Virus record (IMG/VR): IMGVR_UViG_3300037506_000247
Coordinates: 1 to 60,606 of that record
From: a virus
Taxonomy: Duplodnaviria > Caudoviricetes
DNA: 60,606 nucleotides
Direction: 5' to 3' (one strand)
Position 1 is the stretch's first letter. Each line of letters begins with the position of its first letter. Both the position numbers and the translations under genes were made by a program. Below the pieces are notes generated by a model that made no database searches, was not told the DNA's origin, and was given only the letters and a program-made list of their open reading frames with translations. Shown here piece by piece: positions 18 through 57,458 of the stretch.

Positions 18-355
18 CCGAACACCAGCGCCCAGGCTCCGGGCTTCAAGACGCGCAGCACCTGCTCGGCCCAGTCCTGGTGCCACTTCTGCATGGCCTG
101 CCCGCCTTCGGCGAAGTTGCCGTAGCACACGCGGCCGCTCGGAATCGAGCGGCCGGTCTTGCCGGTCCAGCGCTCGCGGATGTCGCCGGTCTTCGCGCCG
201 AGCTTGTCCCACTCCTTCCCCATGAACTCCAATCCGTAGGGCGGATCGGTCACGACGGCGTCCACCGAGTCCCCCGGCAGCGCGGACAACAACTCGACGC
301 AATCGCCCACCAGGAGCTTGCAGTCGCTCGCGCCATCATCTTCGATCTCAGGCAT
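1..355 (-). CDS. DNA N6-adenine/N4-cytosine methylase, 5' part (continues at 60589 to 59619)
   Basis: Hand translation from ATG at 355 gives MPEIEDDGASDCKLLVGDCVELLSALPGDSVDAVVTDPPYGLEFMGKEWD, with the DPPY catalytic motif. GGAG RBS upstream. Missing from the ORF track because it crosses the end. Confidence 0.9.
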   Translation of the reverse strand, partial: MPEIEDDGASDCKLLVGDCVELLSALPGDSVDAVVTDPPYGLEFMGKEWDKLGAKTGDIRERWTGKTGRSIPSGRVCYGNFAEGGQAMQKWHQDWAEQVLRVLKPGAWALVFGGSRTY

Positions 356-475
356 GTCGCTCTCCGCCGGTCAATATACTCGGCGCGAAGCGCCCAGGGA
401 AAGCTCAAAAACGATTCCCCCGGATTCCGGAGTTTTTCTCTGGACACACCGCATTCCATCGTTTACTATATAACG

Positions 476-575
476 TGAGAAATTCTTTTTTTATTTTTAT
501 TTATTTTATTTAGGTAAGAAGGTAAGAAGGTAATTCATACCGGCATTTTTTCGGTTTTCATTTTTGGCGCGGACC
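476..575. other. AT-rich non-coding tract with tandem GGTAAGAA repeats; candidate origin or packaging region
   Basis: Poly-T/TTTA run at 481-511, then GGTAAGAA-GGTAAGAA-GGTAA at 513-533, in an otherwise GC-rich genome. Confidence 0.45.
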
Positions 576-578
576 ATC

Positions 579-776
579 TCAAAAAGGCAAGTCGTCTTCC
601 TCGTCGCGGTTCGCCTTGCCTTGGGCCTTCAGCTCCCGGAACGACGGTAAGCGGTGGGCATCTTCGACGCGCGCAAGCGCCTCGCTCCGCGCGAGTCTGA
701 TTTGCCGTTTGAGCGTTGATGCATTCGACCGCCTCGCCCCGGTACTCGGTGGTTCCTCGCCCTCAACCCACGGCAT
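579..776 (-). CDS. Small protein with SSB-like acidic C-terminal tail (DEEDDLPF)
   Basis: GGAGG RBS, ATG at 776 (MPWVE..), just after the upstream stop at 778. Confidence 0.7.
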   Translation of the reverse strand: MPWVEGEEPPSTGARRSNASTLKRQIRLARSEALARVEDAHRLPSFRELKAQGKANRDEEDDLPF

Positions 777-777
777 G

Positions 778-2499
778 TCAACCTCCGGGTGCTCGCATCG
801 GAGCGGAGTTCGCCAACCATACCTTGACGCGCTGGATAGCGTGGTCGCGCAGGTACGCCTTAGAGAGGTCGATGCCCACCGCCCGCCGGCCAAGCGCGAG
901 GCATGCCAGGGCCGTGGTGCCGCTGCCCACGAACGGGTCGAGGACCGTGCAGGGCGCGAGCGGATGGTCATTCAGGGAGATCGACGGAACGTACTCGCGA
1001 ATCATAACCCGCTCGGTTGAGGCGGTCACTTGCTCTTCCTTGACGAATTGCGGGTTCGTCGTGCCGATGCCGTGCCGGTTGCGGGCCAGCGAGTGGTCGC
1101 GCGAATCATCCTTGCCGTCCCTCTCCGCGCTGGGGTGGATCCGCCGCCTGACTTCGATGCTGATCCATCGGTTGCGAAACTTGCCGTGGCACTCGCAAGT
1201 CGGCTCCCAATCCGTCGTGGTCGTCAATGCCTCGCGATAACCGCGCTGGTGTTGGCCGGTCATGCCGTCCTCCCAGCCGTCGGGCGGGTGTTTTCGTCCG
1301 AAGTTACTCCCGCCGCCGCCTTTGCGCGGTCTTCGATGGACCTCCGTCACTCGCCGCCACGGTGCGCCGCAGTTCGCGCAGCAACCCTTCTCCGAAGTCG
1401 TGGCGAGGATCATCGGCGTGATGAGCTTCTCCGGAAACGTGGCGAAGTGCGCCCCGGCGTAACCGCCTCCTGACGACAGTCGCCACACATCAGTCTTGTT
1501 GCCGGACTGGCGCATGAACTCCTCCAGCTCGTCCGGGCAATTTGCGGCCATCCAATCGAAGAGCGCCCGCTCGTCGTCCACGTTCCACACGTCGCGCTTG
1601 TTAGCTCCGACCTGATTCTCAAACGAATGGAACGTGCTGTCAGCGAATCGGGTACGATACCAGTCCTTGTCTTCTGCGGGTATCAACTCGCTCTTCCTGC
1701 TGGGTACTCCGAAGGAACGCCCAGAATTCCACTCGCCCTTTGACTCTTCCCTGATCGCCTCGGCATCCCAGTAGTATCCCGGCGCCTTGGCAAACACAAA
1801 CACGTGCTCGTGTGACTTCGTGCAGCGGTTGCGCACGCTCTCCGGCATCGGCGAAACTTTTGACCATATGACGTCTTGGCGCAGCACCCATCCATCCGCC
1901 TGGAGCGCTAGCGCCACGCGCCACGGAATGCCCGCGAGGTTGCCGGAAGGAAGAATACCCCGGCCTTTCTCAAGGCCCCGGCCTTGAGCATTGTCGCCGT
2001 ACATGCGATCCACGTCATTCCGACCCGGTGTCGTCCTGGCGTAAGAATCCCCCAAGTTCAGCCACAGCACTCCGTCATCCCTCAACACGCGCTTGACCTC
2101 GCGAAACACTGCGACCATCGAACAAACAAAGCAGCGCCCACATTGCCCCCGTCCTTGCGTGCCACAGTCGGGGGATGGTTCTGCGCCGATCTGGGCATTG
2201 CCGTCGAATGTTCTCCCGGTCCCTCCGCAGATCTCGCAACTCGGGTTCGGCTTTTTCTCACCGACATTCCCACCTCCGGCCAAGCTGGAGGCGGGATCGT
2301 CGCGACCCGACAATTGTGTCGCACAGAAGCACCGCGAGTAGTCGCGCAAGCCCCAGTACGGAGGGCTGGTGACACAGCACTGCGCCGAGCGCTCGGGCAT
2401 CAATCGGAGCTGCTTGCGCACGTCGCCCAGCCACAATTCGACGCGGCCGCAGTCGGTGCGCCAAAACGATCCCACGGCTTCCGTTTCAATCGACGGCAT
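778..2499 (-). CDS. DNA methylase (N6/N4 family, SPPY, probably N4-cytosine)
   Basis: VTSPPYWGLRDY, WLNLGDSY, HFATFP and LDPFVGSGTT motifs. Start MPSIE. Confidence 0.92.
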   Translation of the reverse strand: MPSIETEAVGSFWRTDCGRVELWLGDVRKQLRLMPERSAQCCVTSPPYWGLRDYSRCFCATQLSGRDDPASSLAGGGNVGEKKPNPSCEICGGTGRTFDGNAQIGAEPSPDCGTQGRGQCGRCFVCSMVAVFREVKRVLRDDGVLWLNLGDSYARTTPGRNDVDRMYGDNAQGRGLEKGRGILPSGNLAGIPWRVALALQADGWVLRQDVIWSKVSPMPESVRNRCTKSHEHVFVFAKAPGYYWDAEAIREESKGEWNSGRSFGVPSRKSELIPAEDKDWYRTRFADSTFHSFENQVGANKRDVWNVDDERALFDWMAANCPDELEEFMRQSGNKTDVWRLSSGGGYAGAHFATFPEKLITPMILATTSEKGCCANCGAPWRRVTEVHRRPRKGGGGSNFGRKHPPDGWEDGMTGQHQRGYREALTTTTDWEPTCECHGKFRNRWISIEVRRRIHPSAERDGKDDSRDHSLARNRHGIGTTNPQFVKEEQVTASTERVMIREYVPSISLNDHPLAPCTVLDPFVGSGTTALACLALGRRAVGIDLSKAYLRDHAIQRVKVWLANSAPMRAPGG

Positions 2500-2854
2500 G
2501 CTTTCCCTTTCTGTACCTATGGTTGGTCGAGGCGGCGCGATCACGCATCGACGCTGGCACTCGCGCTCCCTCGAACTCAGCCAAACCATTCTCGGTGATC
2601 CGGTAGACCATTTCAATTCGGCCCGACACGTCCACTCTCACAGCGTCGACCAGGCCCAGAGCGATCAGTCCGGGGTGCGCCGCTCCCGACGACGACCCCT
2701 CGCGCAGGCCGTTCAAGACGCGCGTCAGAGTGCCCGACACGCCCGTGAACCCGGCCTGCTCGTTCAAGTCTTTTCGGCTCAAAGACTCGCGCCCGTCGAG
2801 CAGGGCGTCCACAAGCGCTTGCAGGACGCGGACTTGCGGCGTGCGCAACTTCAC
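2486..2854 (-). CDS. Winged-helix DNA-binding protein (paralog A)
   Basis: GTG start with GGAG RBS. The LGLV..YRITENG wing pattern is present. Aligns with 2974-3438. Confidence 0.7.
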   Translation of the reverse strand: MKLRTPQVRVLQALVDALLDGRESLSRKDLNEQAGFTGVSGTLTRVLNGLREGSSSGAAHPGLIALGLVDAVRVDVSGRIEMVYRITENGLAEFEGARVPASMRDRAASTNHRYRKGKHAVD

Positions 2855-3496: not shown

Positions 3497-5468
3497 CCGC
3501 GGTCGCCTCATCCCATAAGGCGCGGAACTTCCTGGTCAAGCGCTGCCGCCGCCCGACCGCCAGCCCACCGACCTTCGGCGGGTCGAACTGCTCGACCACG
3601 CCGATCCGCCGCATGAAGCGGATCAACCGCCCGAACTTTTCCTTGTCCTCGTTGCACCAGATCGCCAGCGTATCGGCCTCCTCCGAGCCGTGAGGCGACC
3701 GCACCAGGAACCGCACCACGTTCATCGTCCGGCCTCGGGCCGTGTCGAGCGCGACCTTTCGGACGATCCTGAGCACCTCGTCGTCAATGGTCCAGCGGTT
3801 CAACACCACTGCCAGGCACGAGGCCAGGCGCGTGAACTGGGCCGCCAACCGAGTAGGGAGCTCGACGGTCTCGTGCTTCTCCTCGCCCCACTTGCCGGGG
3901 TCGGGACGAGCGCGGAGCTTGGCGACCACCTCACCCAGGACCGACATCATCCGCGCCAATGCCAGCCGCTCGTCCACTGACACCTTGCACCGCGCCAACA
4001 GCTCCTCGGCGTTGCGGCGCAGCCAATCGACGTAACCGCCCGTCGCTCGGTAGGCTTTGTCCATCTTCGGACTGACGATCGACTGCGGCGAACAGTTGAC
4101 TTTCTGAGTCACGTTGTCCAACTCGCCCAGGACCACGCGGCGCAGGATGGCTTCGCGCTGGTCTTCAACCGGCTGGTCCACGTAAACCCGCAAGAATCGA
4201 TCTCCCACGCGGCTGTGGTCGTGGTTGAGCATCGCCGGCGTTCCGGCCAGGATCATCGGCATCCGCAGACCGTCATAGCGGTTGTCGGTGTCCTGGTTCT
4301 TGTACGTCGTGACCATGGTGCCGTCGAACATCCGGCGTTGCTGGCTCATCAGCTCCTGAAACTGAGGTAGCGCGGTCAACACGTCTCCCTCCGGGCCGAT
4401 CAATGTCTTGTGGTTGCAGCGCGATATTTTCGAGTAGTCCTTGCCTTCCTCGTTCTTCCAGCCGCTGAAAAACCCTGTTATGATGCCCAGCTCGTCGCAG
4501 GTGTCCGAGCGCAACATGCCCTCACAAAAGCGGGTTTTGCCGCTCCCGGCATCGCCGAGGACGTGGAGGCAAAGCTGTGATTCACCCACCTGATCCGTTG
4601 ACAGCGCCACCGCGAGCATCACCGCCAACACGTCCCCCATCGACTGCCGCCACTCCATCGCTTCCCGCCACCAGTCGATCAACTCCTCCCACGACTCGCA
4701 GCGTTCGGTCTTGGACGACGACCGCTGGCCGTCTCGAATGCGCTCGATCGAAGCCACGATGCCGCCGATCTCCGAATCCGGCAGGGGATTGCTCAACCTG
4801 GCGTTGCGGCCGATCACCGCGTTGCGCAGATCGTCGGGCTTGTAGTTGTCGCGCAGCAATCGGGAGCCGTAGAGAAACAGTTCGTCGTTGCGCCTGCCTT
4901 CCGGGATGTCGTCCACCTCCATCGTTTCACCCGCCTTGCCGATCCGCCGCGCGTCGGGCGACCTCAAGATCAGCTGTCGAAGCGCTTCGGGAAGAGGCGC
5001 CGGCGTGATGTCCCAGATCGACAGGCCATCGAGCCACTCGTACACGTTCCCTTCGGGGTGAACCGATGGCGGCACCGTGGACAACGCGCCTCGGTTGCCG
5101 ATGCGGAACTCGATGCCGGCCGCTTCCACCTTGGATTTGTCCGGCAGCCCGGTGGGGCGCTTGAAAAGCCGGTGCAACCCGCGCCGCGACCGCCACGTGG
5201 GGGTCTGCAGCTCCCCCGGAAGACAGAGAGACCGGATCAGCGCCTCACCTTCCGAGTTGTCGCACTCCACGTCCATCACGTCCGATTGGTTCAAGACCAG
5301 CGCCAGGTTCGCGCTGCCGTTGCTCAAGTAAGAGCGCAGGTCGTCCTCACCCACGCGGTGATCGGGCCAGCCCAACGGCGCGGCCCGGCCCCACTGGGGC
5401 ACCACCCACCAACCGGCGGCGTGGAGCTTCAGCGCTTCGTCAAGGACGCTCTCTTCAATTCTTGGCAT
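3474..5468 (-). CDS. Bifunctional primase-polymerase (Prim-Pol + PriCT) fused to P-loop helicase
   Basis: DVECD, RRGLHRLF, VPPSVHPEGNVYEW, IPEGRRNDELF (PriCT) and Walker A GDAGSGKT. Start MPRIE is coupled to the upstream stop. Confidence 0.88.
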   Translation of the reverse strand: MPRIEESVLDEALKLHAAGWWVVPQWGRAAPLGWPDHRVGEDDLRSYLSNGSANLALVLNQSDVMDVECDNSEGEALIRSLCLPGELQTPTWRSRRGLHRLFKRPTGLPDKSKVEAAGIEFRIGNRGALSTVPPSVHPEGNVYEWLDGLSIWDITPAPLPEALRQLILRSPDARRIGKAGETMEVDDIPEGRRNDELFLYGSRLLRDNYKPDDLRNAVIGRNARLSNPLPDSEIGGIVASIERIRDGQRSSSKTERCESWEELIDWWREAMEWRQSMGDVLAVMLAVALSTDQVGESQLCLHVLGDAGSGKTRFCEGMLRSDTCDELGIITGFFSGWKNEEGKDYSKISRCNHKTLIGPEGDVLTALPQFQELMSQQRRMFDGTMVTTYKNQDTDNRYDGLRMPMILAGTPAMLNHDHSRVGDRFLRVYVDQPVEDQREAILRRVVLGELDNVTQKVNCSPQSIVSPKMDKAYRATGGYVDWLRRNAEELLARCKVSVDERLALARMMSVLGEVVAKLRARPDPGKWGEEKHETVELPTRLAAQFTRLASCLAVVLNRWTIDDEVLRIVRKVALDTARGRTMNVVRFLVRSPHGSEEADTLAIWCNEDKEKFGRLIRFMRRIGVVEQFDPPKVGGLAVGRRQRLTRKFRALWDEATAETKDPGG

Positions 5469-6202
5469 CACCTGTCCTTTCGCGTTGGCGGGCGCATGGG
5501 CAGATCGATCTTGACCTTGCCCGCGCGCCGCAATTTGCTCCTGGCGCTCGCGACTTTTCGCGTCGATTCGGCAAACGACGGTCCCTCGGTCGTGTTGTAC
5601 ACACACGCGCGGAAATTCCCCTTCTCGTCATACCATCCGTCCTTTCCCCACGCTCCCTGGCCATCCGAGTACTTGCTGAAAACATCCGGATACAAACCGA
5701 TGCACAGCTGCTGCGCCTCGTCGGCCGTGGCAGCGTTGATGCCGAACTCCTCGCGAACGCAGCGCTTGACGAACTGATCCCACAAGATAGTCGTGATCTC
5801 CAACTTGCCCGGCGGCGGAAACCGAAAGCCGTCATCGACGACCAGGCGCGCCTTCCCGCCGGACTTCTTGCTCGCCTTGGCGTTCTCGCGGATGCACTCG
5901 GCGATGAACTGTGACCACGTCCTTGGCCGCTTGAGGTGGTTGTGTTTGGATTTCTCCCAGTTGCGGCGCAGCTCGCTCACGAGGGCGGCAAACCGTCTGG
6001 AGGTCTCGGCGATTCCCTTCGGTTGCTCGACTCTCGCCCAACCCTGCTTCGTCCGCGCTTCCTTGCTAAAGACGATGGTGATTGACTCCAACTCCTCGTT
6101 GAACGGCCAGCCCATGAACTCAGCCAACTTGCGCGGGTCTTGGTGCATGTCGCGCAGGGTCACGCGCACGGCGACTGGTTGATCCTTTTCGATGACCGGC
6201 AT
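5468..6202 (-). CDS. Hypothetical protein
   Basis: Translationally coupled at both ends. Start MPVIE. Confidence 0.7.
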   Translation of the reverse strand: MPVIEKDQPVAVRVTLRDMHQDPRKLAEFMGWPFNEELESITIVFSKEARTKQGWARVEQPKGIAETSRRFAALVSELRRNWEKSKHNHLKRPRTWSQFIAECIRENAKASKKSGGKARLVVDDGFRFPPPGKLEITTILWDQFVKRCVREEFGINAATADEAQQLCIGLYPDVFSKYSDGQGAWGKDGWYDEKGNFRACVYNTTEGPSFAESTRKVASARSKLRRAGKVKIDLPMRPPTRKDR

Positions 6203-8283: not shown

Positions 8284-8555
8284 GGATTGGCCTTGATCCA
8301 TTCCTGGACTTCCAACGCGACCTTGAGGTACTCCCGCGACGGATTCATGTTGACTTCCTGCCCCGGTCTGTAGGTTGCCCATATTGCGTTACGCAGGCGC
8401 TTGGGCAGTTTGAACCAGTGCTCCTTACAGCCCCACATCGCCGGAGGCACTTGTCTACCGCAGCCCGGCCAGTGGCAGTGGTGGTCCCTCGTCTGGCCCT
8501 GGCGCTTGACGTAGGCGACCTTGTCAGCCTTGCTCGTCTCCTCGATCTACGGCAT
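8280..8555 (-). pseudogene. Small Cys/His phage protein with in-frame TAG at codon 3
   Basis: Reads MP*IEETSKADKVAYVKRQGQTRDHHCHWPGCGRQVPPAMWGCKEHWFKLP.. to a TGA overlapping the polymerase ATG. GGGGGAG RBS. TAG at 8549-8547. Confidence 0.7.
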
Positions 8556-9244: not shown

Positions 9245-10474
9245 CTACTCCGCCGCGGCCTCCTCTAGCTTCGGCTCGATCTTGTCCCAGGGCACGGCCT
9301 TGCGCACGTTCTTGAAGCCCTTGACCGCAGCTAGGTCGACGGTGCGCTTCTCGGCGTCCACGGCCTTGACCTCGTGGTCGGTCTCGGCCCTACCGGGCAC
9401 GAGCTTGCCGGCCTTGTTCTTCACGAGCGCCGGGTAGGGATAAATCTCGCCGACAGCGGGAGTCCACTCCACGGCCTCTTCCTCGGCGGTCTCCGCCTCT
9501 CCGCTGCGGGCAGACTCGATCATTTCAACCACGGCGATCCAGTCCTTGGCGTTTCTGACATCGTCCTCGGCGCAGCCGGCTTCCTTGGCCAGGCGAATCA
9601 ACTCAGTCTGCGCTCTCTTGCGGACGTCCAGGGTCACAGCCTTGTCAACCGCTCGAGCTGCCAGCTCCCGGAGGTCGGAACCTTCTTCGACCGAGGCCGG
9701 TTCACGGGTTGCACCTTCCTCGATCGGTCCTTCCTCGGCCGAAGATTCATCGGGCGAATCGGCCACGGCCGGCCCTTCGAGAACCGTCTCGGCGACGGCT
9801 GAAACGTCCGGCCCGTCCTCCCAGGGCTGGCCGTTGGCGGACGGAACGCCGGAAAACCAGTCATGAGGCCACGTTCCAGCGCTGTTGGGATACGCCTCGG
9901 TCGGGTCGCGCCAGCGCGTGTTGAAGCGAAAGCGCGGCTTGGCTTTGCGGATCGCGGCCAGGATCGAATCGAGGATTTTCCAACTCTGCTCCTCGGTGGT
10001 CGCCGAGGCCAGCGGGTGCGTCACTTCGTCGCCGGCCACGAGGCGTAGCACGTTGAGAGCATCCGCGATGTTCTCGTCACCGGGCACGACCTCCGACTGA
10101 CCGTCCCTGCCCCTGATCCGCTCAGCGCAGAGAGGCAGAGTCTTGTTGGTGCGCAACCCCTCAACCGGCACAGTCTGCGGCTCGCCCGCGATCCGCACCG
10201 ACTTGGTTGCCGGGTCCCAGACCTTCCTGACGTCCACGGCCGTCTTGGGGCTGAGGACCACACCGCCCAAGTACAGGAAATTCTGGCCGGTGCGCCCGGC
10301 CGCGTCGTTGGCCTTGGTCGGCTTGTAAACGCCGATCTTGGCTTCGCGCAGCTCGGCCACGCCGTTGACAATGCCGCCCGGCAACTCGGTGAAGTCCTGA
10401 GGCTGTCGGGTCTCGTCCCTGGCGTGAGCCTTGGCTGCGGCCAAGAATCCACTCTTTGCGGTCTGCGATGCCAT
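9245..10474 (-). CDS. Putative ssDNA-binding protein with acidic C-terminal half
   Basis: Strong GGAGGAG RBS. Lies directly downstream of the Sak4-like ATPase. Function inferred from synteny only. Confidence 0.5.
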   Translation of the reverse strand: MASQTAKSGFLAAAKAHARDETRQPQDFTELPGGIVNGVAELREAKIGVYKPTKANDAAGRTGQNFLYLGGVVLSPKTAVDVRKVWDPATKSVRIAGEPQTVPVEGLRTNKTLPLCAERIRGRDGQSEVVPGDENIADALNVLRLVAGDEVTHPLASATTEEQSWKILDSILAAIRKAKPRFRFNTRWRDPTEAYPNSAGTWPHDWFSGVPSANGQPWEDGPDVSAVAETVLEGPAVADSPDESSAEEGPIEEGATREPASVEEGSDLRELAARAVDKAVTLDVRKRAQTELIRLAKEAGCAEDDVRNAKDWIAVVEMIESARSGEAETAEEEAVEWTPAVGEIYPYPALVKNKAGKLVPGRAETDHEVKAVDAEKRTVDLAAVKGFKNVRKAVPWDKIEPKLEEAAAE

Positions 10475-10551: not shown

Positions 10552-11568
10552 TCACGTGACCTTTTCGCCTCGCAGGACTTGCATCAGCCGCCGATGCAAT
10601 TCCTGCGGCGTGCGGCCTTCAACAAACTCTGGCACGTTGTCGGGACTGGCGCTGCGCACACCCGCAGCGAAGTTGGTGTGCAGCTGAGTCAACAGGCGCC
10701 GGACCATCTTGCCCGTGCCGACCTCTTGCATGGTCTTGACGCCGGCCACTAGGTATTCCTCGGTCTTGATCTCCTCGGCCAAGTAAAGCCGGCAAACGCA
10801 GTCGCAGGCGTCCATCAACCAGCCGGCCGTGGCCTGCCCCAAGTCGGCGGCGACGAACGACTCCAGAGTCAGACCCCGCGTCAGCTTGTCGCGGCGCACG
10901 TTGCCCTTCTCGTCTCGCGGCGGATTGTGGTCGCGTTCTTTGCAGAGGATCACCCGATGTTTGCGGAGGTTCAAGAACTTTCGCAGCACTTCCTTGGCCT
11001 TGGCGCTCCGGTCCATGTAGTTGTCCGAAGTCGCCACGCCCCACGAGCGGTCGTCCTTGCTCCTGGCGACCTTCATCTGCGCTGGCAGCTCTGGCAGGTC
11101 CATTAGCTCGCAGAGCGCCACGTCTTGAAGGCTGGTGCCCCCGTCGAGGACAACGGTCTTGTAACGCTCGTCCTCCATCAGTTCCTCAGCAAGTTGGACC
11201 GCGCCCATCGTGCCGACCACGGGCAGCTGCCGGCCCTTGGGCCAGCGCTCTTCGGCCGTCGAGGGGATCACGAGGAAGTGGTCCACACCGGCCATCTTCT
11301 TGACCGAGACCGCGCCACCGGTAAACGGTGAAGGCTCGAACGACACTAGCGCCACTGGCTTCTCGAATTGGCAGGCCAGCGTAGTTTTTCCAACGCGGTT
11401 AGTCCCGTAGATCAAGACCGAGTACCACTCACTCCAGTCCAGCTCCGCCACGGGTACGGCCCGCGCGAGCATGGAGCCATTGGCGCTGGGCTTCCGTACC
11501 TGGTCCTTGGGTAACTGCTTTGTGACAGACACGGCTGTCTGCCGTACAGCAACTTCGATCTTCGGCAT
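10552..11568 (-). CDS. AAA_24/Sak4-like recombination ATPase
   Basis: LIYGTNRVGKTTLA, YKTVVLDGGT. Start MPKIE. Confidence 0.85.
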   Translation of the reverse strand: MPKIEVAVRQTAVSVTKQLPKDQVRKPSANGSMLARAVPVAELDWSEWYSVLIYGTNRVGKTTLACQFEKPVALVSFEPSPFTGGAVSVKKMAGVDHFLVIPSTAEERWPKGRQLPVVGTMGAVQLAEELMEDERYKTVVLDGGTSLQDVALCELMDLPELPAQMKVARSKDDRSWGVATSDNYMDRSAKAKEVLRKFLNLRKHRVILCKERDHNPPRDEKGNVRRDKLTRGLTLESFVAADLGQATAGWLMDACDCVCRLYLAEEIKTEEYLVAGVKTMQEVGTGKMVRRLLTQLHTNFAAGVRSASPDNVPEFVEGRTPQELHRRLMQVLRGEKVT

Positions 11569-12113: not shown

Positions 12114-13249
12114 GGCAACTCCGGGAAGAGATTCTTAACACGCCGCAGCCCGACGGTGGAACCAGTTGCCAAGTGCTCATCGAGGTCGGTGACGCCCACG
12201 CGCGCGTCCATCAACCCGCTGTAGACACCGAAGGGCATGCGGAAGTGGAGGCACGAAGGTCCGGCCCAGTGCTTGCACTTGCTGTCGTTCGTCACCACCT
12301 GCCACCAGTCACACAACTGCTCCAAGATCGGGTCAAGGCATTCGCGCTTGAATCGCTCCACATCTTCGGGCGCGATCTCGACTCTCCAACGCATGAAATA
12401 GTCTTGCGGACTTTCACGGATGTAGCTTGCAACCCGGTCCCAGTATTCATCCTCGGACTCACCGGCCGGGTTTGACTTGCTGGGTTCCCTGCGCTTGATC
12501 GTGCCTTTGCCGCCAGACAGCGGCCGGCGCACCACATTGTAACGCACACCGCCCACCGGGCTCTTGACGCTCGCCTTGAAATCGAAGTCGGACTCCAACA
12601 GCGCTACAACGTACATCATGGTCTGAAGGTCGAACGTCAATTGGCGCTTGATCTGCTGCTCGTCGGGATCGCCCTTGGACTTGTTTTCCTGAAGGTAAAT
12701 TGCGGCTTGCCGCCCCTTGCCGACCAGGTCCACCGAGTCAAACTTGCCGCGCAGTCTGACCGTCCTCCCCGACCGCAGAACGTGAGGTACGGAGAAAGAG
12801 CATTCCTGCAGCAACGGCGTTCGCGCCGTCACGTCAGGGTGCTTCGCCCAGTGGTCAACGTAGAGCGGGAATTGCAGGAGACAGACTCGATACCACTTGT
12901 CGATTTCTTCTCGCTGCATGGGATACTTGGCGCAGAGGGAACGACAATAACTCGTCAGCGCCGACTCCCAGGGCAACGTGGAACTCGCCGGCACAATGAC
13001 TTTCTCCGTGCCTGCCAGCGCTTCTTCGCAGACGTGCCACATGTTCCCGTATTCAATTCGGTGGTTGAACTTCTCGGCCGCTTGAAGGCCGTCTACTACC
13101 AACAGGCGAAAGCGTTCTCGGCAGACCAGGAACTTGCTCAAAAGCGAGAACGTGATGCCATCCTCCTCCGGACCTTTCCAGACGGGGACCTTGGACTTCT
13201 TGACAGACTTGGCGGCGCGGGCGAGCGGCGGGGTTTCGATGACAGGCAT
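12110..13249 (-). CDS. PD-(D/E)XK (Cas4/RecB-like) exonuclease
   Basis: TFSLLSKFLVCRERF, YGNMWH, LRGKFD..ENKS..QTMMY. Start MPVIE. Confidence 0.85.
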   Translation of the reverse strand: MPVIETPPLARAAKSVKKSKVPVWKGPEEDGITFSLLSKFLVCRERFRLLVVDGLQAAEKFNHRIEYGNMWHVCEEALAGTEKVIVPASSTLPWESALTSYCRSLCAKYPMQREEIDKWYRVCLLQFPLYVDHWAKHPDVTARTPLLQECSFSVPHVLRSGRTVRLRGKFDSVDLVGKGRQAAIYLQENKSKGDPDEQQIKRQLTFDLQTMMYVVALLESDFDFKASVKSPVGGVRYNVVRRPLSGGKGTIKRREPSKSNPAGESEDEYWDRVASYIRESPQDYFMRWRVEIAPEDVERFKRECLDPILEQLCDWWQVVTNDSKCKHWAGPSCLHFRMPFGVYSGLMDARVGVTDLDEHLATGSTVGLRRVKNLFPELP

Positions 13250-13273: not shown

Positions 13274-13827
13274 CTAGAGCTTGGCAAAAGCGCTTGCCAG
13301 CACAACCGTCGCGCACCTGACCATCAAGCGCTGTTGGACGGTGGGGGCGCGGAGGATGGCTGCTGGGTGAACCACGTCGATCACCCGCACGCCGTCGGGG
13401 ACTCGCAAGGACCACCGGTCTTGGGGTTGAGCCAATCCCGCGCCAGCGTGCCGACGCAGACGATCAAGCGCGGATTGGCGATCCGGACGAACTCGGCCAG
13501 GCGCGGCTAGCAGGCGATGATCGCATGACCGGGCGGTTCGACCGTTTTGCCGCCGCCTTCGCGGGGAATGCAGCATACCAAATTCGTGAAGGCCCATGAA
13601 AGTCGAGGCGTCGGCATCGCGTTGTCGATGATCGAGTCCATCAAGTGCCCGGCGGGTCCGCAGAATAGTCGGCCCAGCGCGTCCTCGGACTCTCCGGGCG
13701 ATTCACCCACGAAGAGCGCGTCACAGGGGATCGATCCGCGCGCCAGCATCACGCGCGAGCGATCCTCGCACAGCGGACACTCGCGGCAGTTCCCCCAGCG
13801 CTCGACGTGTTGTTGAAACAGGCTCAT
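13274..13827 (-). pseudogene. Uracil-DNA glycosylase family 4/5, interrupted by a TAG and a frameshift
   Basis: CRECPLC, FVGESPG..EDALGRLFCGPAG, TNLVCCIP, then AC*PRLAEF..PRLIVCVG (TAG 13509-13507). The C-terminal VVHPAAILR motif is in a different frame after about 13420. Confidence 0.85.
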
Positions 13828-14108: not shown

Positions 14109-14603
14109 TCAAGTCCGATCTAGCCCGCGAACGGTCGCGTGCTTGCGCCGGCAATGCTCCGCGATGAGGATCGCGTCGGCGACCGCCAGCGTGATCGCCT
14201 CGCCTGGAAACAGCTTTTGCGCGTGAGCCTTGAGCCGATTTTTGAACTCCCCTTTCTTCTCACCCTTCTTGCGCGGCGCGATGCCCAGCGCCTTCTGCCA
14301 AGTCCTCGGCGTGACCTCTTCAAACGGCACGCCCAACGATACTAAGAACCCCTTCAACAGTCCGGTGTTGACGCCGAACTTGAACATAGTGCTGCCTGGA
14401 TTGCCCCTGTCGCCCACGTAACCGGTGTTGCGCTCGATCACCGCAAAGAAAAGCGGCTCGGCCGACAGCCAGCGCCAAATGTCACTCTCGGTCGGTGGCA
14501 TCGCCACGAAATCCAGCTCGTCGCCGGCGATCACGGCCAGTCCTCCCGACGCGCCCGGGTCGATGCCCAAGCACACACGCGCTTCGTTCTCAAGCATTGG
14601 CAT
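14109..14603 (-). CDS. RuvC-like Holliday junction resolvase
   Basis: LGIDPGASGGLA, AVIE, MFKFG, VTPRTWQK, ADAILIA. Start MPMLE. Confidence 0.88.
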   Translation of the reverse strand: MPMLENEARVCLGIDPGASGGLAVIAGDELDFVAMPPTESDIWRWLSAEPLFFAVIERNTGYVGDRGNPGSTMFKFGVNTGLLKGFLVSLGVPFEEVTPRTWQKALGIAPRKKGEKKGEFKNRLKAHAQKLFPGEAITLAVADAILIAEHCRRKHATVRGLDRT

Positions 14604-15763: not shown

Positions 15764-16036
15764 ATGCTAGTAGGTTCACCCAAGCGAACGATCCAGTGCT
15801 GCTCGCAGGTCAACAGCGGCCGATGGTGCCAAGAGACTTACGAGACGGCCAGCCGGTTCGCCGGTCGCCGCGCCAAGTACCTGCGAGAGCGCGGGTATCA
15901 AGTCACGGTCAGCACGATGGGATCGCAAGTCACCCCACTCGGATTGATCAAGCTGACGCTCGTGGACATCCGCCCCGGAGTTCACGAAGGCACCTTTGAC
16001 CTTCCCGAAGTCATGAAGGTCGAATGGCCGCGCTAA
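15764..16036 (+). CDS. Hypothetical early protein
   Basis: AGGAG RBS then MLVGSPKRTIQ. Confidence 0.7.
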   Translation: MLVGSPKRTIQCCSQVNSGRWCQETYETASRFAGRRAKYLRERGYQVTVSTMGSQVTPLGLIKLTLVDIRPGVHEGTFDLPEVMKVEWPR

Positions 16037-16121: not shown

Positions 16122-16709
16122 ATGCCTGTCATCGAGGGGCGAGCCGCCAAGCCCTCGGTCGCTGATCGCCTGGCTGCGGTCGCCCGCCGGGAGGGCGTCC
16201 TCGCCTGCGATCTGCCCGGCCTCCACGACTGGCCCTGCAAGGCTGTCGTAGCCGCACTGCGGAAGGCCGGCATCGAGCGGTCCGACATGACAACAGGCAT
16301 CTGCCGCCAGGCAGACCGGATCAACCAGGAACGGACGGCAGCCATGATCGACCGGTTCAACACCCAATTCGAGTGGGACACACGTGGCGGGTTCTGGGTT
16401 GTGCCGGGCGACCCCGCCCGTGACCCAGCGCTGAATCGCGAGCTCGCGGAACGCCTGGTCGCCGACAAGCGGTTGAGCAGGTCCGCCCGCGAGCGGCTTG
16501 CCCCGATCCTGACCCCAGCGCCGAGCGCGGAACCATCCGCGCCGACGCAACCCGGCAAACCCCGAAAGTCCGACGAGCAACGGCTGCTCGAAGCGCAAAG
16601 GCGCGACGAGCGCCGCACCAGCGTTCTCAACCGCCGTGAAAAAAAGGCCCTCGTGGCCAAGATCAAGGCCCTACCCATGCGGCCTCCATCACAAAGGGGC
16701 GCTCCGTGA
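16122..16709 (+). CDS. Hypothetical protein
   Basis: AGGAGCAACCCATG leader. Start MPVIE. Confidence 0.7.
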   Translation: MPVIEGRAAKPSVADRLAAVARREGVLACDLPGLHDWPCKAVVAALRKAGIERSDMTTGICRQADRINQERTAAMIDRFNTQFEWDTRGGFWVVPGDPARDPALNRELAERLVADKRLSRSARERLAPILTPAPSAEPSAPTQPGKPRKSDEQRLLEAQRRDERRTSVLNRREKKALVAKIKALPMRPPSQRGAP

Positions 16710-16920: not shown

Positions 16921-18543
16921 ATGCCTGCGCTTGAGAACGTCCCCCGCGTCACCGAGTCCAAGGCCTCCGCGCCGAAACCGCAACCGCAGAAGCCCGCCAT
17001 CAAGTACCCCGACCTCGTGGTTGGGATCGACGACGGCAACGGCGGCGTCGAACTGCTCCCCCTGGCCACGGTCCGGATCACCGGACCGATGGCCGCCAAA
17101 CTGCTCGAACTCGAAACTGAATCCGAATACGCCCTGCGCTGCGCCAGGGAGTACGGACTGGCGTCGACCGAGAACGAAGTGCGTGAGTTGGGCATCAAGC
17201 TCCAGTTCCATACCTTCGTCGAGCCGATCACCGGCGAGAAAGTGATTTGCTGGAACAACCTCCACAATCGACCGTTCAAAATGCCGGCCGCGCTGGCGTA
17301 CAAGCAGGAAATCCTGACGTTCAACTGGGCTGGCCCCACGACTTGCCCCGGCGAAACCGTCAATGCGGAACCCATTACGATTTCACGCACGGAGCAGATC
17401 GTGTCTGGCCAGAACCGCCTCGGCGCGGCGTGGATGGCCTGGATTGAGTGGAAGGAAAAGTACGATGACCACAAGCGCGTGTGGCCCAGAGAGAAGTTTC
17501 CGGAAGGACCGTACCTCGAGACACTGGTCATCTACGGTGTGTCCGACGCGCAGAAGGTCATTCAGACGGTGGACACCGGGGAGAAGCGGAGCGAGTCCGA
17601 CGCCTTCTTCACCGGCAACACGGTCGAGCGCGTCTTCGGTAAAGACAAGGCGGACACTCTCACGCGCAAGGCCAAGGAAGAAGTTGCGCGAATGCTGGGG
17701 CACGCCGTGGATTTTTGCTGGGTCAGAATGGGCTGGAACGACCGGCTCATCAAGACCAACAGGACCGCGCAAGAGTTCCTCGACAACTTCCCGACGATTC
17801 ACAAGGCCGTCAGGACGATCTTCGACGTGAACCAGTCCCGACAGCTCTCGCTCATGTACGTCAACGCCGGCACCTGCGCTGGCGCGCTGTTTCTCATGGC
17901 CCAGGGCAAAACCAACCCACAGAAGCGCGTGGACTCGGAGAAGGGCCTCGACATGACCTTGCTCGCCAAGGCTGAGGAATTCTGGCGGCTGTTGTCGAAG
18001 AAAGAGGGGTTTTTCAACTTGGTCAAGAACACGCTGGGTAAAATCACTTCGGTCGAGGGCGAGGAGCTCAACGGCCGCGCCGTCGAGAAGTTCTGCGTCA
18101 TTGCCAAGGCCTGGCGCATCTGGCTCGACGGCGGCAAGCTCACACCTGCCGACAAGGACAACCCGGCTGCGCGGGAACTGGCGCTCCAGACCTACGAGGA
18201 CGAGGACGGCAACCGACACCTCGTGGACCCACCCGATTTTGGCGGCATCGACCGCGGCCCCAAGGTCCGCGAGCCGGAGGTCGACGATGCTCCCGACGAG
18301 CAGGAAGTCGAGGAGGAGAAGCGGAAGGCCGAGACCCGGCGCTCCGAGGAGCTGAGGCAGATCGTCGAAGAGTCCCCGGCCCAGGAGTTAGCGCGGCGGC
18401 AGCAGGCCGACATCAAAGCCCAGAATGCGGCGCTCTTGAGGCAGAAGGCCGAGGCCAAGAAGAACGGTCAGCTCAAACCCAGGACCCCGGCACTCGCGAC
18501 CGACAAGCAGCCGCGGCCGGCGAAAGCGCCGGTCAAGAAGTAG
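16921..18543 (+). CDS. ParB/Srx-like domain protein
   Basis: NNLHNRPF..Y..W..NAEPITIS..SGQNRL resembles the phage ParB-like N..NR..W..GEPI..DGQHRL pattern. Start MPALE. Confidence 0.65.
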   Translation: MPALENVPRVTESKASAPKPQPQKPAIKYPDLVVGIDDGNGGVELLPLATVRITGPMAAKLLELETESEYALRCAREYGLASTENEVRELGIKLQFHTFVEPITGEKVICWNNLHNRPFKMPAALAYKQEILTFNWAGPTTCPGETVNAEPITISRTEQIVSGQNRLGAAWMAWIEWKEKYDDHKRVWPREKFPEGPYLETLVIYGVSDAQKVIQTVDTGEKRSESDAFFTGNTVERVFGKDKADTLTRKAKEEVARMLGHAVDFCWVRMGWNDRLIKTNRTAQEFLDNFPTIHKAVRTIFDVNQSRQLSLMYVNAGTCAGALFLMAQGKTNPQKRVDSEKGLDMTLLAKAEEFWRLLSKKEGFFNLVKNTLGKITSVEGEELNGRAVEKFCVIAKAWRIWLDGGKLTPADKDNPAARELALQTYEDEDGNRHLVDPPDFGGIDRGPKVREPEVDDAPDEQEVEEEKRKAETRRSEELRQIVEESPAQELARRQQADIKAQNAALLRQKAEAKKNGQLKPRTPALATDKQPRPAKAPVKK

Positions 18544-22097: not shown

Positions 22098-22316
22098 TCA
22101 ATCCTCATCTTCGGGCCAGCCTGGCCAAGACTCGCCGCATGTCGGGTGAAACAGAGACAGGGCGTCAAGAACTTTGACTGCCTTCCTGACTTGCGCTTCA
22201 CTGCCGCACAAGACTGGATCGAGGATGCGCCGCAACCTAGTGATGGCCTCTTCGTGCTTGCGCAAGATAGAATCGCGGTCGCAACAATACGTTGAGGTCT
22301 TGACTGGCTTCGTCAT
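22098..22316 (-). CDS. Hypothetical protein
   Basis: GGGAG RBS. ATGA overlap. Confidence 0.55.
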   Translation of the reverse strand: MTKPVKTSTYCCDRDSILRKHEEAITRLRRILDPVLCGSEAQVRKAVKVLDALSLFHPTCGESWPGWPEDED

Positions 22317-23113
22317 TTGTTGCTCCCTTCCAGCCATACAACTCCGACCCCGCAGCTCCGCTCGCGCCAGTGACGCAGCCAACCCTCGTGAGCGTTTGCG
22401 GGCGGGATGCCGCGCGCCTCGCGTTTCAGCGCGGCTTCGGCGTCCGAAGTATCCACGATCAGCTTCGAGCATCGGCCCGCGGCGACCGCGGACCAGGCTT
22501 GCTGCATCGGTGAGCCGGCCTCGTTCACGTCGTGAAAGAACTCAACGCCGTTTGGAGCCATCAGCGGCAGGTACGCCAGGTGGTCGGCGAAGAATGCGCT
22601 CTTGTCGCCGTCGACGAACAACACGTCGATCCGGTCTTCACCCAGGAAGTTCCAGACCATCGTCCGCGCTACTTGGTCGCGACTGGACCGGTCGAGCCAG
22701 AGGAATTCGATCCGGGGGAAAGCGCGCTCAAACAGTTCGGCGTAAGGCAGGCCGCGCACTTCGCAGGCGATCACCTTTTCGACGGTCGGCAGGCACATGC
22801 ACCAGTGGTATAACCCGCCGCCTTTATCCGCGCCAATTTCCATGACCACCTTTGGGCCGCCAGCTTTTCCGGAACCGGCGCACTCCGGGCAATCCCCACG
22901 CCATGGCGGGCCGCACGAACATGATTCCTTGTCGACGTTCCTGGCGACCTCGATCATCCGGCGCATCTCGGCCTGGCGCTGAAGTGGGAAGAACAGATCG
23001 GTCTCAAACACCTCCGGATACAAGTCCTGCCCCGGATTCAATTGCGGATGGACCTCGGCGAAGAATCGCTCGACGCAAGGCATCATCTCCGCTGGAAACG
23101 GTGCGTCCATCAT
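22313..23113 (-). CDS. Class I SAM-dependent methyltransferase (Methyltransf_24-like)
   Basis: VMEIGADKGG, IDVLFVDGDK, FFHDV. Confidence 0.8.
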   Translation of the reverse strand: MMDAPFPAEMMPCVERFFAEVHPQLNPGQDLYPEVFETDLFFPLQRQAEMRRMIEVARNVDKESCSCGPPWRGDCPECAGSGKAGGPKVVMEIGADKGGGLYHWCMCLPTVEKVIACEVRGLPYAELFERAFPRIEFLWLDRSSRDQVARTMVWNFLGEDRIDVLFVDGDKSAFFADHLAYLPLMAPNGVEFFHDVNEAGSPMQQAWSAVAAGRCSKLIVDTSDAEAALKREARGIPPANAHEGWLRHWRERSCGVGVVWLEGSNK

Positions 23114-23163
23114 CTTTTCCTTGTGACCGGTCTCTTGGCGCTCGTGATTGAGTCGATGGTGAC

Positions 23164-34149: not shown

Positions 34150-34173
34150 GTTCGTCTCGCGAGTCTAGGATCG

Positions 34174-34500
34174 TTACTTGCTCTTGTTTTTGCGGCTAAC
34201 TCCGGACAAGAGCAGCTCGCGCGCCTTGAACTTGCCGGCTTCCGAGCGCTTGATGGTTACCACCGTCGCGCCCGTCAGCTCACCCAGCTTCATGGCCGCG
34301 CGCTTCGGAGACTCGGCCACCTGCCGGTCCCACTCCTCGAACGGAATCTCCGGCTTCGGCGGAAGCAACCCCAGCCAATCCAGCCAGGCCAGGAACTGAA
34401 GGTGGGTCAGCGGGCCGGACCAGCCCATCAGCTCGTTCAAGGATACGCCGCGCTCGTGCGCCAGGCGGAGGTGCCCCGCCCAGCGCGCGCTCAGTTTTTT
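34174..34500 (-). CDS. Tail assembly chaperone, -1 frameshift extension (gpGT-like)
   Basis: The -1 frame after the slippery site reads KLSARWAGHLRLAHERGVSLNELMGW..FLAW. Confidence 0.75.
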   Translation of the reverse strand, partial: KKLSARWAGHLRLAHERGVSLNELMGWSGPLTHLQFLAWLDWLGLLPPKPEIPFEEWDRQVAESPKRAAMKLGELTGATVVTIKRSEAGKFKARELLLSGVSRKNKSK

Positions 34501-46086: not shown

Positions 46087-46467
46087 TCACTCCGCCACGC
46101 CCGGCAGCGCGTCGCGCAGACGAGTCACGTCGCACCAGCGGCGGAACTCGCGGCCGTCGAGGTCGGGCACCTTGTGGAAGTTCGAGACCTCAACCAGCTC
46201 GGCCGGCGCATCCTCGGCCCAGTCCTTGGGGAAGTCGGCCAGCGGTCCGTGCCAGAGCACGCTTGACAGGCCGAGGTCTTCGGCGACGTAAACCTGGGCC
46301 ACAACCGCGGCGGTGTCACCCTGGCCGGTCGAAGTCACGTCTTCGACCCAGCGGCAAGCGATCTCGCGCGGCACGTCGGTCGTCCTGATCCGCCCGTAAC
46401 GGTCATACCGCACCGCGTCGAGAACGACGCAGGAGTCAACCAAGTCGCACTCTTCGACTGGGGGCAT
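46087..46467 (-). CDS. Head-closure (stopper) protein
   Basis: DRYG..EIACRW pattern and position. Start MPPVE. Confidence 0.65.
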   Translation of the reverse strand: MPPVEECDLVDSCVVLDAVRYDRYGRIRTTDVPREIACRWVEDVTSTGQGDTAAVVAQVYVAEDLGLSSVLWHGPLADFPKDWAEDAPAELVEVSNFHKVPDLDGREFRRWCDVTRLRDALPGVAE

Positions 46468-51962: not shown

Positions 51963-51969
51963 CCAAGTC

Positions 51970-55148: not shown

Positions 55149-55176
55149 CGAATCACCCCTTCCCGCTCCTGACTCA

Positions 55177-56366: not shown

Positions 56367-56755
56367 CACGGGTCGGTCCTCTCAACCTCGCCGGCGTCCC
56401 AGTCCCTGACCTCGAACTCCGGGATGCGGCGCTCGTTGTTGCATTCGATGCCGACGATTTGATCTTCCTTGATGCACTGAAGACGCAGGCCATTGTGCTT
56501 GAACGTGAACACGTTGCCCTGCACGAGCACGAGATCGCCGCGCCTGACGTAGCGGCATTGCGCTCCGGCCGACACCACCCAGCCCTTGCGCGCCTCCTCG
56601 CCGGCGCGCTCGCCGTCGCGCAGGCTCTCCGGAATCACCACGCCGCCCGGCGACTTGTCCACCGGGATCATCTTGAGGATCACCAGATTGCCCAGCGGCT
56701 CGAAGCTTCGGTCGGGCAGCCCGGTGTCGGCCATTCCCACGTCGTTGGTTCGCAT
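56366..56755 (-). CDS. groES: Co-chaperonin GroES homolog
   Basis: PLGNLVIL..SPGGVVIP..GWVVSAG..VRRGDLVL..IKEDQIVG. Confidence 0.88.
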   Translation of the reverse strand: MRTNDVGMADTGLPDRSFEPLGNLVILKMIPVDKSPGGVVIPESLRDGERAGEEARKGWVVSAGAQCRYVRRGDLVLVQGNVFTFKHNGLRLQCIKEDQIVGIECNNERRIPEFEVRDWDAGEVERTDP

Positions 56756-56781
56756 CGTTCAGCTCCTGTTGAAATCCAAGG

Positions 56782-56979
56782 TCACTTCGTCAGCCGCTCG
56801 AAACCCAGCGCAATCAGTCCGGCGGTCAGCGCGTTGCCGATCCACCAGCTCACCGCCGCCAACTCTCGGCCACGCTCGTCCGCGACGACCCCCGCGTAGA
56901 CCATCGCCACGGCGATCCAGACCAGCGCGGCCAGCCAGACCAACTTCCAGAGCGGCACTTGTCTTCCCGTTCCGTTCAC
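56782..56979 (-). CDS. Small two-helix membrane protein
   Basis: Two hydrophobic segments. GGAGG RBS. Confidence 0.6.
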   Translation of the reverse strand: MNGTGRQVPLWKLVWLAALVWIAVAMVYAGVVADERGRELAAVSWWIGNALTAGLIALGFERLTK

Positions 56980-56995
56980 GCCCGATCACCTCCCC

Positions 56996-57184
56996 TCACC
57001 GGTTCGACTCCCACGCACCGTGGGCCGCGCCGAGCAGGTCGCTCACCTCTGGTCCGTCGATCACACCCGGCGCGTCCTCGGTCACCGGCTCGACTACCGC
57101 GCAACGCACGCACGTGTCGCAGTCCGGCAGCGCCTCGATCCTGCCCTGTGGGATAGCCTGCCCGCACTCGACGCATCTTCGCAT
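56996..57184 (-). CDS. TraR/DksA-type C4 zinc-finger protein
   Basis: CVECGQAIPQGRIEALPDCDTCVRC. AGGAGG RBS. Confidence 0.85.
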   Translation of the reverse strand: MRRCVECGQAIPQGRIEALPDCDTCVRCAVVEPVTEDAPGVIDGPEVSDLLGAAHGAWESNR

Positions 57185-57293
57185 CGGACACCTCCTTTTG
57201 CCTCTCGCGTTTCCGATGGTCAATCGGTACACATACAGGCTTGCTGCTCCTCTTGGTCGTCCGGAGTTTCAAGAGTCTCTAGATCGGAATACT

Positions 57294-57458
57294 TCAGTTT
57301 GCCACGCCCAAATTGGCAAAGCAAGGGATGCACGTAGTAGGGAGATTGCCGTCCCAGGCATCAAGGATCATCTTTAGCATGTACCCGCTGGTCCTCCCAC
57401 CGCTAAAAGCGATGCACGAACAGCGCGGGACTCGGTATGGATTTTCAATGTCGGGCAT
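57294..57458 (-). pseudogene. Truncated PAPS-reductase-like (PP-loop) gene fragment
   Basis: MPDIENPY..IAFSGGRTSGYML..CFAN then stop after 54 aa. Locally lower GC. Confidence 0.7.

Follow-up and report, generated by a model that had tools for sequence, protein, structure and literature searches.

A lineage-specific N-terminal Met-Pro tag on replication-module proteins in a clade of tailed phages

Introduction

Why should a primase, an exonuclease, a resolvase and several other proteins of one phage begin with the same short peptide? The question is raised by the IMG/VR virus record IMGVR_UViG_3300037506_000247 (Duplodnaviria; Caudoviricetes), in which 13 potential gene starts read Met-Pro-x-[Ile/Val/Leu]-Glu, hereafter MPx[IVL]E or the tag. 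The window analysed here, of 60,606 bases, is the complete record (completeness rating 82%). The original prediction, made from the letters of the DNA, took the tag to be selected at the protein level and to serve as an address of some kind. A literature search, with supplements outside its scope, found no description of a Met-Pro N-terminal tag on phage proteins. Are the tagged starts genuine? Does the tag occur in related phages? Is it the peptide that is kept, or the DNA encoding it? What might the tag be for?

Tagged starts in the window

Searched on both strands, the window has 19 places at which P-x-[IVL]-E comes directly after a start codon. These include all 13 sites of the original prediction (Table 1), each where it had been placed, together with six others. 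Late genes have five of the extra matches on their non-coding strand (36665, 37008, 47995, 51888 and 55330), and the sixth, at 23083, is inside an open reading frame (ORF) having a better start upstream. Genes were called with a self-trained program, blind to the motif, which uses coding potential, the match to a Shine-Dalgarno (SD) sequence and the start codon; about 76 were called in the window, mostly on the minus strand. In nine genes (355, 2499, 5468, 6202, 11568, 13249, 14603, 16122 and 16921) this scorer itself selects the tagged ATG. The start at 46467 is backed by its context and that at 8555 by homology. Those at 776 and 57458 have SD-like sequences but weak coding scores.

The tag at 8555 contains a stop codon. 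The ORF that continues past this TAG has a match to phrog_18063 from its residue 17 on, a point that lies upstream of every canonical start, and the orthologous gene of a related contig described below (G004) begins MPRIG. The homology upstream of other starts and the MPRIG start together indicate that the tag is genuine and now interrupted, leaving 12 of 13 intact.

Amino acid frequencies predict 0.057 tagged starts in 78, against the 12 intact tags observed (P(>=12) of approximately 1e-24), and there is a single internal copy of MPx[IVL]E in 18,040 residues. The same caller applied to three unrelated phages (49-61% G+C) gives Met-Pro (MP) starts in 4/58, 6/69 and 2/76 genes, with no common pentapeptide. 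The enrichment of tagged starts is real.

Eleven of the 13 tags are in the replication, recombination and modification module. The proportion of tagged genes is 11/27 within this module and 2/52 elsewhere (Fisher p 7e-5), in line with the enrichment on DNA-metabolism genes first proposed, and relatives show the same tendency, although in their case the borders of the module were drawn with the data already in view. Tagged families are the primase, exonuclease, Sak4, RuvC and methylases, to which relatives add a uracil-DNA glycosylase (UDG). PolA, the helicase and a protein resembling SSB (which binds single-stranded DNA), encoded in the same operons, are untagged in the window. The tagged proteins had been called unrelated and mostly they are, the exception being the methylases at 355 and 2499, which are paralogues. 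Two functional labels fared less well. Neither Pfam nor PHROG supports 'ParB-like' for the 540-residue protein at 16921, in whose family cluster 8/10 members, itself among them, have an MP start, and the 'PAPS-reductase remnant' at 57458 gives only a weak PHROG match (E 9e-5).

The tag had also been said to sit ahead of the recognisable domains, and domain matches together with comparison of RuvC and PolA N-termini confirm this. Untagged RuvC orthologues begin at the first, catalytic strand (M..YLGIDPG) and tagged ones are 5-8 residues longer. An MP start is lacking in 100/120 PolA homologues, and most N-termini among those listed are at or beside the ExoI strand; the other 20/120 have MPx-hydrophobic and a short linker before that strand. 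Since untagged RuvC and PolA orthologues begin directly at the first strand, the tag is best described as a portable N-terminal add-on. In Sak4 of the window MPKIE stands on a 13-residue extension preceding the family's usual MPx[IV]xKQ start.

Relatives and lineage-specific versions

A Sak4 alignment was used to find relatives, giving four IMG/VR contigs (G001-G004; 35-43% identity) and 34 metagenome loci. Genes were called on the whole of the four contigs and on 12 of the 34 loci, those of about 6.5 kb or longer. Loci L027, L040 and L041 were excluded because each seemed to duplicate one of those analysed. In the window and the four contigs, all of them near-complete or partial genomes, no second residue is as common as proline (16/76, 15/98, 17/106, 12/75 and 12/48 genes), and the same is true of loci L028, L029, L037, L038, L044, L045 and L048. 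The replication module and its tags are common to these genomes, the structural modules are not. The same genes are tagged in the relatives and some more distant homologues are without the tag, a distribution which the original prediction had singled out as informative.

The tag itself varies. MPx[IVL]E in the window corresponds to MPKP[IV] in G001, MPxIP in G002 and L028, MP[KR][IV]G in G004, MPxLPS in L045, MPxL..(A)P in L048 and MPxTP in L044. Clustering of the proteins reveals that the version tracks the genome and not the gene family; primase orthologues, for example, begin MPRIE, MPKIG, MPVIP, MPTIP, MPKLIAP and MPKTP. Over residues 3-6 of 111 MP proteins from ten genomes identity averages 0.664 for proteins of one genome and 0.365 for proteins of different genomes, and in 2000 shuffles of the labels this difference was never reached. 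For 409 non-MP proteins the corresponding values are 0.247 and 0.243, so composition does not explain the lineage effect. Families also keep N-terminal motifs of their own, ..KQ in Sak4 and M-x-L-x-D-K-L-K in the exonuclease, and because of this orthologue pairs (0.62) are about as alike as unrelated proteins of the same genome (0.66). The common core consists of Met-Pro, of a third residue that varies and is often basic, and of Ile, Val or Leu; beyond it, one to three positions are constant in a given lineage but change from one lineage to another. The tag belongs to the clade as a whole, in versions specific to each lineage, and is not peculiar to the window genome. What is unusual is the lineage-specific coding of a terminal short linear motif across a whole module.

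In E. coli, methionine aminopeptidase leaves Met in place on MPP starts. Versions starting MPP are seen in G001, L045, L037 and L044 and, since they would keep Met under this rule, an exposed N-terminal proline is probably not a universal feature.

How widespread is the clade? It is large: exonuclease homologues number 2,245 at E <= 0.001, and there are 108 homologues of Sak4 and 551 of PolA. Among database homologues, whose starts come from other pipelines, MP starts are found in 86/107 Sak4, 59/119 exonuclease and 20/120 PolA sequences, with a hydrophobic residue 4 in 64, 37 and 18 of these, respectively. A megablast search with 10 kb of the window gave no match in the phage collection and tblastn with Sak4 only three, at 24-27% identity; no cultured member of the clade was present in that collection. 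A scan of viral contigs with a single protein gave no close relative. The Sak4 alignment found no match in species genomes, and so pointed neither to prophage copies nor to a host.

Conservation at the peptide level

At the 13 sites of the window Pro2 is encoded by CCT (4), CCG (5), CCA (2) and CCC (2), position 4 by ATC (6), ATT (3), GTT (1), GTC (1) and CTT (2), and Glu5 by GAA (8) and GAG (5). The codon diversity that had been adduced for selection on the protein, with all four proline codons, both glutamate codons and ATC and ATT in use, is thereby confirmed. Across tag codons 2-6 of seven genomes the mean entropy is 0.79 bits at codon position 1, 0.62 bits at position 2 and 1.26 bits at the wobble position, the most variable of the three. 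Residues that are kept switch codon family, Leu between CTN and TTR (L048), Ser between TCN and AGC (L045) and Arg between AGG and CGG (G004), and the conserved prolines at positions 2 and 5 use all four codons. Upstream of tagged genes the entropy from -14 to -1 is high except at the SD sequence, for which the spacing to the start is 4-9 nt in the window. GTG and TTG starts also bear the tag. Judged by this codon usage, the tag is conserved and selected as a peptide and not as nucleotides. As conservation is at the amino acid level, a DNA repeat, a start-associated sequence of the Cluster K type and an RNA operator are largely excluded.

Antisense pairing with late mRNAs carrying the six non-start copies of the motif was considered and set aside as too speculative, conservation being at the peptide level.

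A docking label and its candidate readers

We tentatively favour, at somewhat short of an even chance, the explanation that the tag serves as a short motif for docking, and that a partner which co-evolves with it and is probably phage-encoded reads it. The tag itself is a portable N-terminal short linear motif, placed before complete domains for replication, recombination, repair and DNA modification in a clade of uncultivated phages. One common partner would read the peptide and co-evolve with it; the gene for this partner is probably part of the same exchangeable replication module, and docking would gather many enzymes at one hub on replicating phage DNA. Binding, the partner and the biological role are inferred. 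Two considerations favour a docking label. First, the tag signal changes from lineage to lineage, which argues for a fast-evolving, probably phage-encoded reader and against the ribosome or a host hub that is conserved. Secondly, the list of tagged clients resembles those of the clamp, PCNA and SSB hubs. The clients of these cellular hubs are replication, recombination and repair enzymes like the tagged families, recruited by PCNA-interacting protein (PIP) boxes, clamp-binding motifs and SSB tails.

The PIP-box, the beta-clamp motif and the SSB tail share with the tag that they are short terminal peptides, occur on many unrelated enzymes of DNA metabolism, are selected as peptides and are separable from the catalytic domain. 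Some PIP-boxes are even at the extreme N-terminus, as in UNG2 and MSH6. The differences are that the hub motifs have consensuses to which the tag, fixed at residues 1-5, is unrelated, and that they are nearly universal in cells whereas the tag differs by phage lineage. The cellular systems also have a defined hub, whereas here there is no clamp homologue in the five genomes (the window and G001-G004) and the SSB-like neighbour lacks an acidic tip.

Several observations weigh against a docking role. Profile searches of the five genomes for the beta-clamp N-domain (PF00712), ClpS, ClpP and peptide deformylase gave no match, and the tag fits none of the hub consensuses considered (QL[SD]LF, Qxx[LIM]xxF[FY] and DDDIPF, the last being the acidic C-terminal tip of bacterial SSB). 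It is always placed exactly at the start codon, and a docking motif needs no such placement. The tag is dispensable and not universal, as relatives with the same module can be nearly without MP starts (L024 0/13, L034 0/17, L035 1/32, L039 1/15). Some members of the clade have a weak dialect; in G003 one pattern fits only 4/12 MP genes. The gene starts throughout are predictions of our own caller or of databases and not protein data. Lastly, the shared core resembles the N-termini of the ribosomal proteins L35 and S21. It is also similar to the K|N-I class at codons 3-4 that is described as giving high yield in E. coli (PMC6920384).

If a partner reads the tag, which protein might it be? A 409-residue protein encoded at 9245-10474 on the minus strand, with no Pfam or PHROG match, adjoins Sak4 in 17/17 of the genomes and loci clustered. 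Its predicted model (predicted local distance difference test 74) displays an OB-like N-terminal domain, an acidic disordered segment (194-265), a part made up of helices and, at the C-terminus, a Tudor-like barrel (334-406). Foldseek gives weak SSB matches (E 5e-3). VIA aligns the model with Tudor domains (Z 7.5, root-mean-square deviation (rmsd) 2.9 Å, 67 residues) and with PrgE (Z 6.2, rmsd 5.8 Å, 125 residues), the Z scores being middling. On the basis of this model the product is likely to be an atypical phage SSB that is without the usual acidic tip. As the reader of the tag it is an attractive candidate only. A complex predicted between Sak4 residues 1-45 and the SSB-like protein at full length, run without controls, scored 0.11 against a mark of 0.32 and speaks neither for nor against. 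A peptide-mediated contact between Sak4 and SSB does have a precedent, since binding of the HK620 Sak4 is reported to require the SSB C-terminal hexapeptide, with tail NDYPPF (PMC5928155). PolA was entertained as an untagged hub and dropped, as 20/120 PolA homologues are tagged themselves.

C-termini like the SSB tail occur in the same module. The 65-residue tagged ORF (581-776, minus strand) ends DEEDDLPF, a look-alike of the SSB acidic tip; with a tag at one end and this sequence at the other the ORF could encode an adaptor with two working ends, or else a decoy for proteins that bind SSB. The ending DDIPF is found on UDG orthologues of two relatives, SSB-type tails on a glycosylase: the family-4 UDG of G003 33694-34437 (corresponding to L003 8036-8779, plus strand) ends DYDDIPF, and that of G004 32707-33375 (L004 4538-5206, plus strand) ends YEDDIPF.

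A more specific form of the docking proposal, which we regard as a long shot, is a private, lineage-coded 'toolbelt', where the N-terminal pentapeptide on the module enzymes would be read by a co-evolving reader of the same replication module. The clients would be the primase, exonuclease, annealase, resolvase, glycosylase, methylases and sometimes the polymerase, and the candidate reader the Tudor-like C-terminal barrel of the SSB-like protein adjoining Sak4.

Alternative explanations

Could the tag instead act in translation or N-terminal maturation? We consider this rather unlikely. M-P-x-hydrophobic would set the efficiency of early elongation, lessen peptidyl-tRNA drop-off, or govern the removal of Met and trimming of the N-terminus; the output of early and middle genes would be tuned and the lineage-specific residues would be secondary. 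The fixed position at codons 1-5 is as expected for such a signal. MP-starting exonuclease homologues favour Lys3 (21/60) and Ile4 (19/60). Among synonymous codons, the tags of GC-rich genomes tend towards rare ones or ones ending in A/T, a preference common near starts (ATA in G002, ATT in L028, GGA and AGG in G004, GAA at 8/13 sites in the window), and the predicted folding of tagged starts in the window is weaker, at -9.6 vs -13.2 kcal/mol (p 0.026). The four relatives show no such effect, however, and in low-GC genomes the tag raises the G+C content, so that an explanation by unstructured starts, holding in the window only, was rejected. A standardised initiation cassette was also rejected, as a uniform 6-nt SD spacing obtained with a cruder measure was not confirmed by an aligned one; the spacing is non-uniform and, with GTG and TTG starts tagged too, there is no standard initiation region. 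Residue 5 is strictly kept within a genome and is E, P or G between genomes, Pro and Gly not being favoured early codons. The highly expressed late genes, those with called starts, are untagged with the exception of 46467. The peptidyl-transferase centre and tunnel are too conserved to account for lineage-specific versions.

A published comparison is the early-elongation ramp of E. coli (PMC6920384). The ramp, like the tag, concerns codons 3-5, and the Lys-Ile of the clade-wide core falls in the best class, K|N-I at codons 3-4 having given the top yield in the library. The ramp has as its motif K|N-I|Y, either at codons 3-4 or at 4-5, and includes neither an invariant Pro2 nor a lineage-specific E, P or G at residue 5; the same source associates C-rich proline codons with low expression (PMC6920384). 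The window tags have Ile4 at 9/13 sites and Lys3 at 1/13.

A degron or anti-degron is improbable. Early enzymes would be marked for timed turnover by a protease of the host, perhaps with a phage adaptor as go-between, or would be protected from it. A terminal, peptide-selected and lineage-coded tag is as compatible with this role as with docking, and the two cannot be separated by sequence alone. The O protein of phage lambda carries an N-terminal ClpX signal, and X-Pro N-termini resist general aminopeptidases; both facts lend the idea some plausibility. However, there is no ClpS or ClpP homologue in the five genomes, and the Met-Pro tag is unlike ClpS N-degrons (L/F/W/Y) or ClpX N-motifs. Early turnover would not obviously be useful to methylases and a resolvase, which are needed late, and one would have to explain why PolA, the helicase and the SSB-like protein of the same operons escape tagging in the window.

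An RNA or DNA element lying over the start codon is very unlikely. The element might be an operator bound by a translational repressor of the RegA or CsrA kind, a start-associated sequence or a cassette copied by recombination, the peptide being a passenger. Three tagged starts have AGGAGCAACCC-ATGCC in common, the tags of G002 share ..ATACCG, and CCA is used in 11/12 MP genes of G003. The motif AGGAGCAACCC precedes untagged genes too, and CAGGAGCAAC is not tag-specific, being found also upstream of the untagged genes at 15764, 18607 and 47522. The variable wobble positions and the use of different codon families at conserved residues largely refute such an element, and upstream only the SD sequence is kept, at variable spacing. 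An extended ribosome-site motif, CAGGAGCAA(C/T)(C/A)(C/T), was noted upstream of tagged and untagged starts alike (11568, 13249, 16122, 15764, 18607 and 47522).

Two relatives encode CsrA homologues, with Pfam CsrA matches above cut-off, between Sak4 and the SSB-like gene (G001:C1:29060-29212 and G004:C1:26411-26566, both on the minus strand), and N-terminal similarity points to others in loci L024, L029, L037, L038, L042 and L048. Their proximity to Sak4 might favour an RNA operator, but CsrA does not track the tag. The profile search gave no match in the window, G002 and G003, while L024, which is poor in MP starts, has the gene.

A precedent for a nucleotide element is in Cluster K mycobacteriophages, which are reported to have unexplained repeats, the start-associated sequence (SAS) and extended start-associated sequence (ESAS), on non-structural genes (PMC3203893). 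As in the case of the tag, these form a signature at the starts of non-structural genes from several families that is conserved across a phage cluster. The SAS is described there as an asymmetric 13-bp nucleotide repeat over the ribosome-binding site, 3-7 bp upstream of the start (PMC3203893), whereas the tag is inside the ORF and kept at the amino acid level, with upstream conservation only at the SD sequence.

Packing of tagged proteins into the head for injection, on the model of T4 capsid targeting, where a common N-terminal peptide on otherwise unrelated phage proteins serves capsid loading, has a hint in the two tags of the late region (46467 and 57458) but is the least probable explanation of all: in T4 the clients are proteins of the head interior, which the prohead protease clips, whereas the clients here are a primase, exonuclease, Sak4, RuvC and methylases, none of the 11 genes for replication, recombination or modification is beside head genes, the tagged set totals more than 3,000 residues and includes large enzymes, the tag travels with the replication module while the structural modules of relatives are non-homologous, and the tag does not fit the cleavage site of T4, [L/I]-x-E, I and E being adjacent here and other versions ending in P or G.

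Other features of the window

The window has a G+C content of approximately 63% and no tRNA gene. Coordinates of the tagged sites and of the modules are given in Table 1. One methyltransferase is split over the ends of the window, the N-terminal part being at 2-355 and the C-terminal part at 59622-60536, both on the minus strand, with frames that do not join exactly; this arrangement suggests that the record is probably circularly permuted.

Table 1. Tagged starts and principal regions of the window
Feature	Position	Strand	Description
MPEIE	341..355	-	N6/N4 DNA methyltransferase, N-terminal part; gene runs off the window start
MPWVE	762..776	-	65-aa ORF, 776-581; SD-like sequence, weak coding score (6.1)
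MPSIE	2485..2499	-	DNA methyltransferase, 573 aa
MPRIE	5454..5468	-	Prim-Pol primase, 664 aa; ATG overlaps upstream TGA
MPVIE	6188..6202	-	244-aa protein without family match; ATG overlaps stop of PolA gene
ATG CCG TAG ATC GAG (interrupted tag)	8541..8555	-	phrog_18063 gene, to 8283; TAG is codon 3
MPKIE	11554..11568	-	Sak4-like AAA_24 annealing protein
MPVIE	13235..13249	-	PD-(D/E)XK exonuclease
MPMLE	14589..14603	-	RuvC-like resolvase; tag 8 residues before first strand
MPVIE	16122..16136	+	195-aa protein without family match
MPALE	16921..16935	+	540-aa protein, phrog_5931 (function unknown)
MPPVE	46453..46467	-	126-aa protein, structural region; start 3 nt past upstream stop
MPDIE	57444..57458	-	54-aa ORF; weak PAPS-reductase PHROG match, SD-like sequence, weak coding score (4.2)
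Replication, recombination and modification module	1-21,300 and final kilobase		Two N6/N4 DNA methyltransferases, Prim-Pol primase, family A polymerase, HNH endonuclease, Sak4-like annealase, PD-(D/E)XK exonuclease, family-4 UDG, RuvC-like resolvase, UvrD-like helicase
Remainder of window			Sugar or S-adenosylmethionine (SAM) enzymes, structural genes

Several reading frames are broken. The UDG gene of the window (13274-13827, minus strand; Pfam UDG, E 2.8e-7) has an in-frame TAG at 13509-13507 beyond which homology resumes, and a frameshift after this TAG and before the HPAAILR motif; its orthologues are intact, with 167-234 residues. At 57478-59007 on the minus strand the ORFs 59007-58417 and 58416-57478 are in the same frame and split only by a TGA at 58419-58417. 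Both match a single protein of 529 residues in G001 and the second also matches the terminase large subunit PHROG. This TGA is either a real nonsense lesion, a site of read-through or an assembly error and, taken with the two in-frame TAGs, raises doubts about sequence quality or the viability of the phage. Recoding of TAG, suggested by the in-frame codons at 8549-8547 and 13509-13507, was rejected, since TAG terminates 11/76 called genes and there is no tRNA gene.

Between the replication and tail modules the minus strand at 22316-26672 encodes two Methyltransf_24 proteins, a radical-SAM-like protein and a protein like UDP-glucose/GDP-mannose dehydrogenase, a run of genes that may have a role in a pathway of sugar or DNA modification. 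A GroES-like co-chaperonin (56369-56755, minus strand; phrog_3188, E 8e-6) and a DksA-like zinc-finger protein (56999-57184, minus strand; phrog_54, E 6e-6) are also present.

Significance

What would the tag mean for these phages? If it acts as a signal for translation or for maturation, it would be an instance, rare in nature, of the first five codons being standardised across a regulon. If it is a docking label, it would represent a simple, evolvable addressing code for a viral replication factory, the equivalent in phages of the networks built on the PIP-box and the SSB tail, but in versions that shift from one lineage to the next. It would then offer a natural system, with dozens of clients, for the study of hub-client co-evolution and of how a module adopts new enzymes, an easy sequence mark for network members in metagenomes, and a five-residue handle for protein recruitment in engineered phages. 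Normally the peptide is on SSB and the pocket on its clients; should the reader prove to be the SSB-like protein's Tudor-like barrel, this polarity would be reversed. The lineage code of such a toolbelt would keep the replication factory apart from that of the host and those of co-infecting relatives, and the module would adopt new enzymes by the addition of just five residues.

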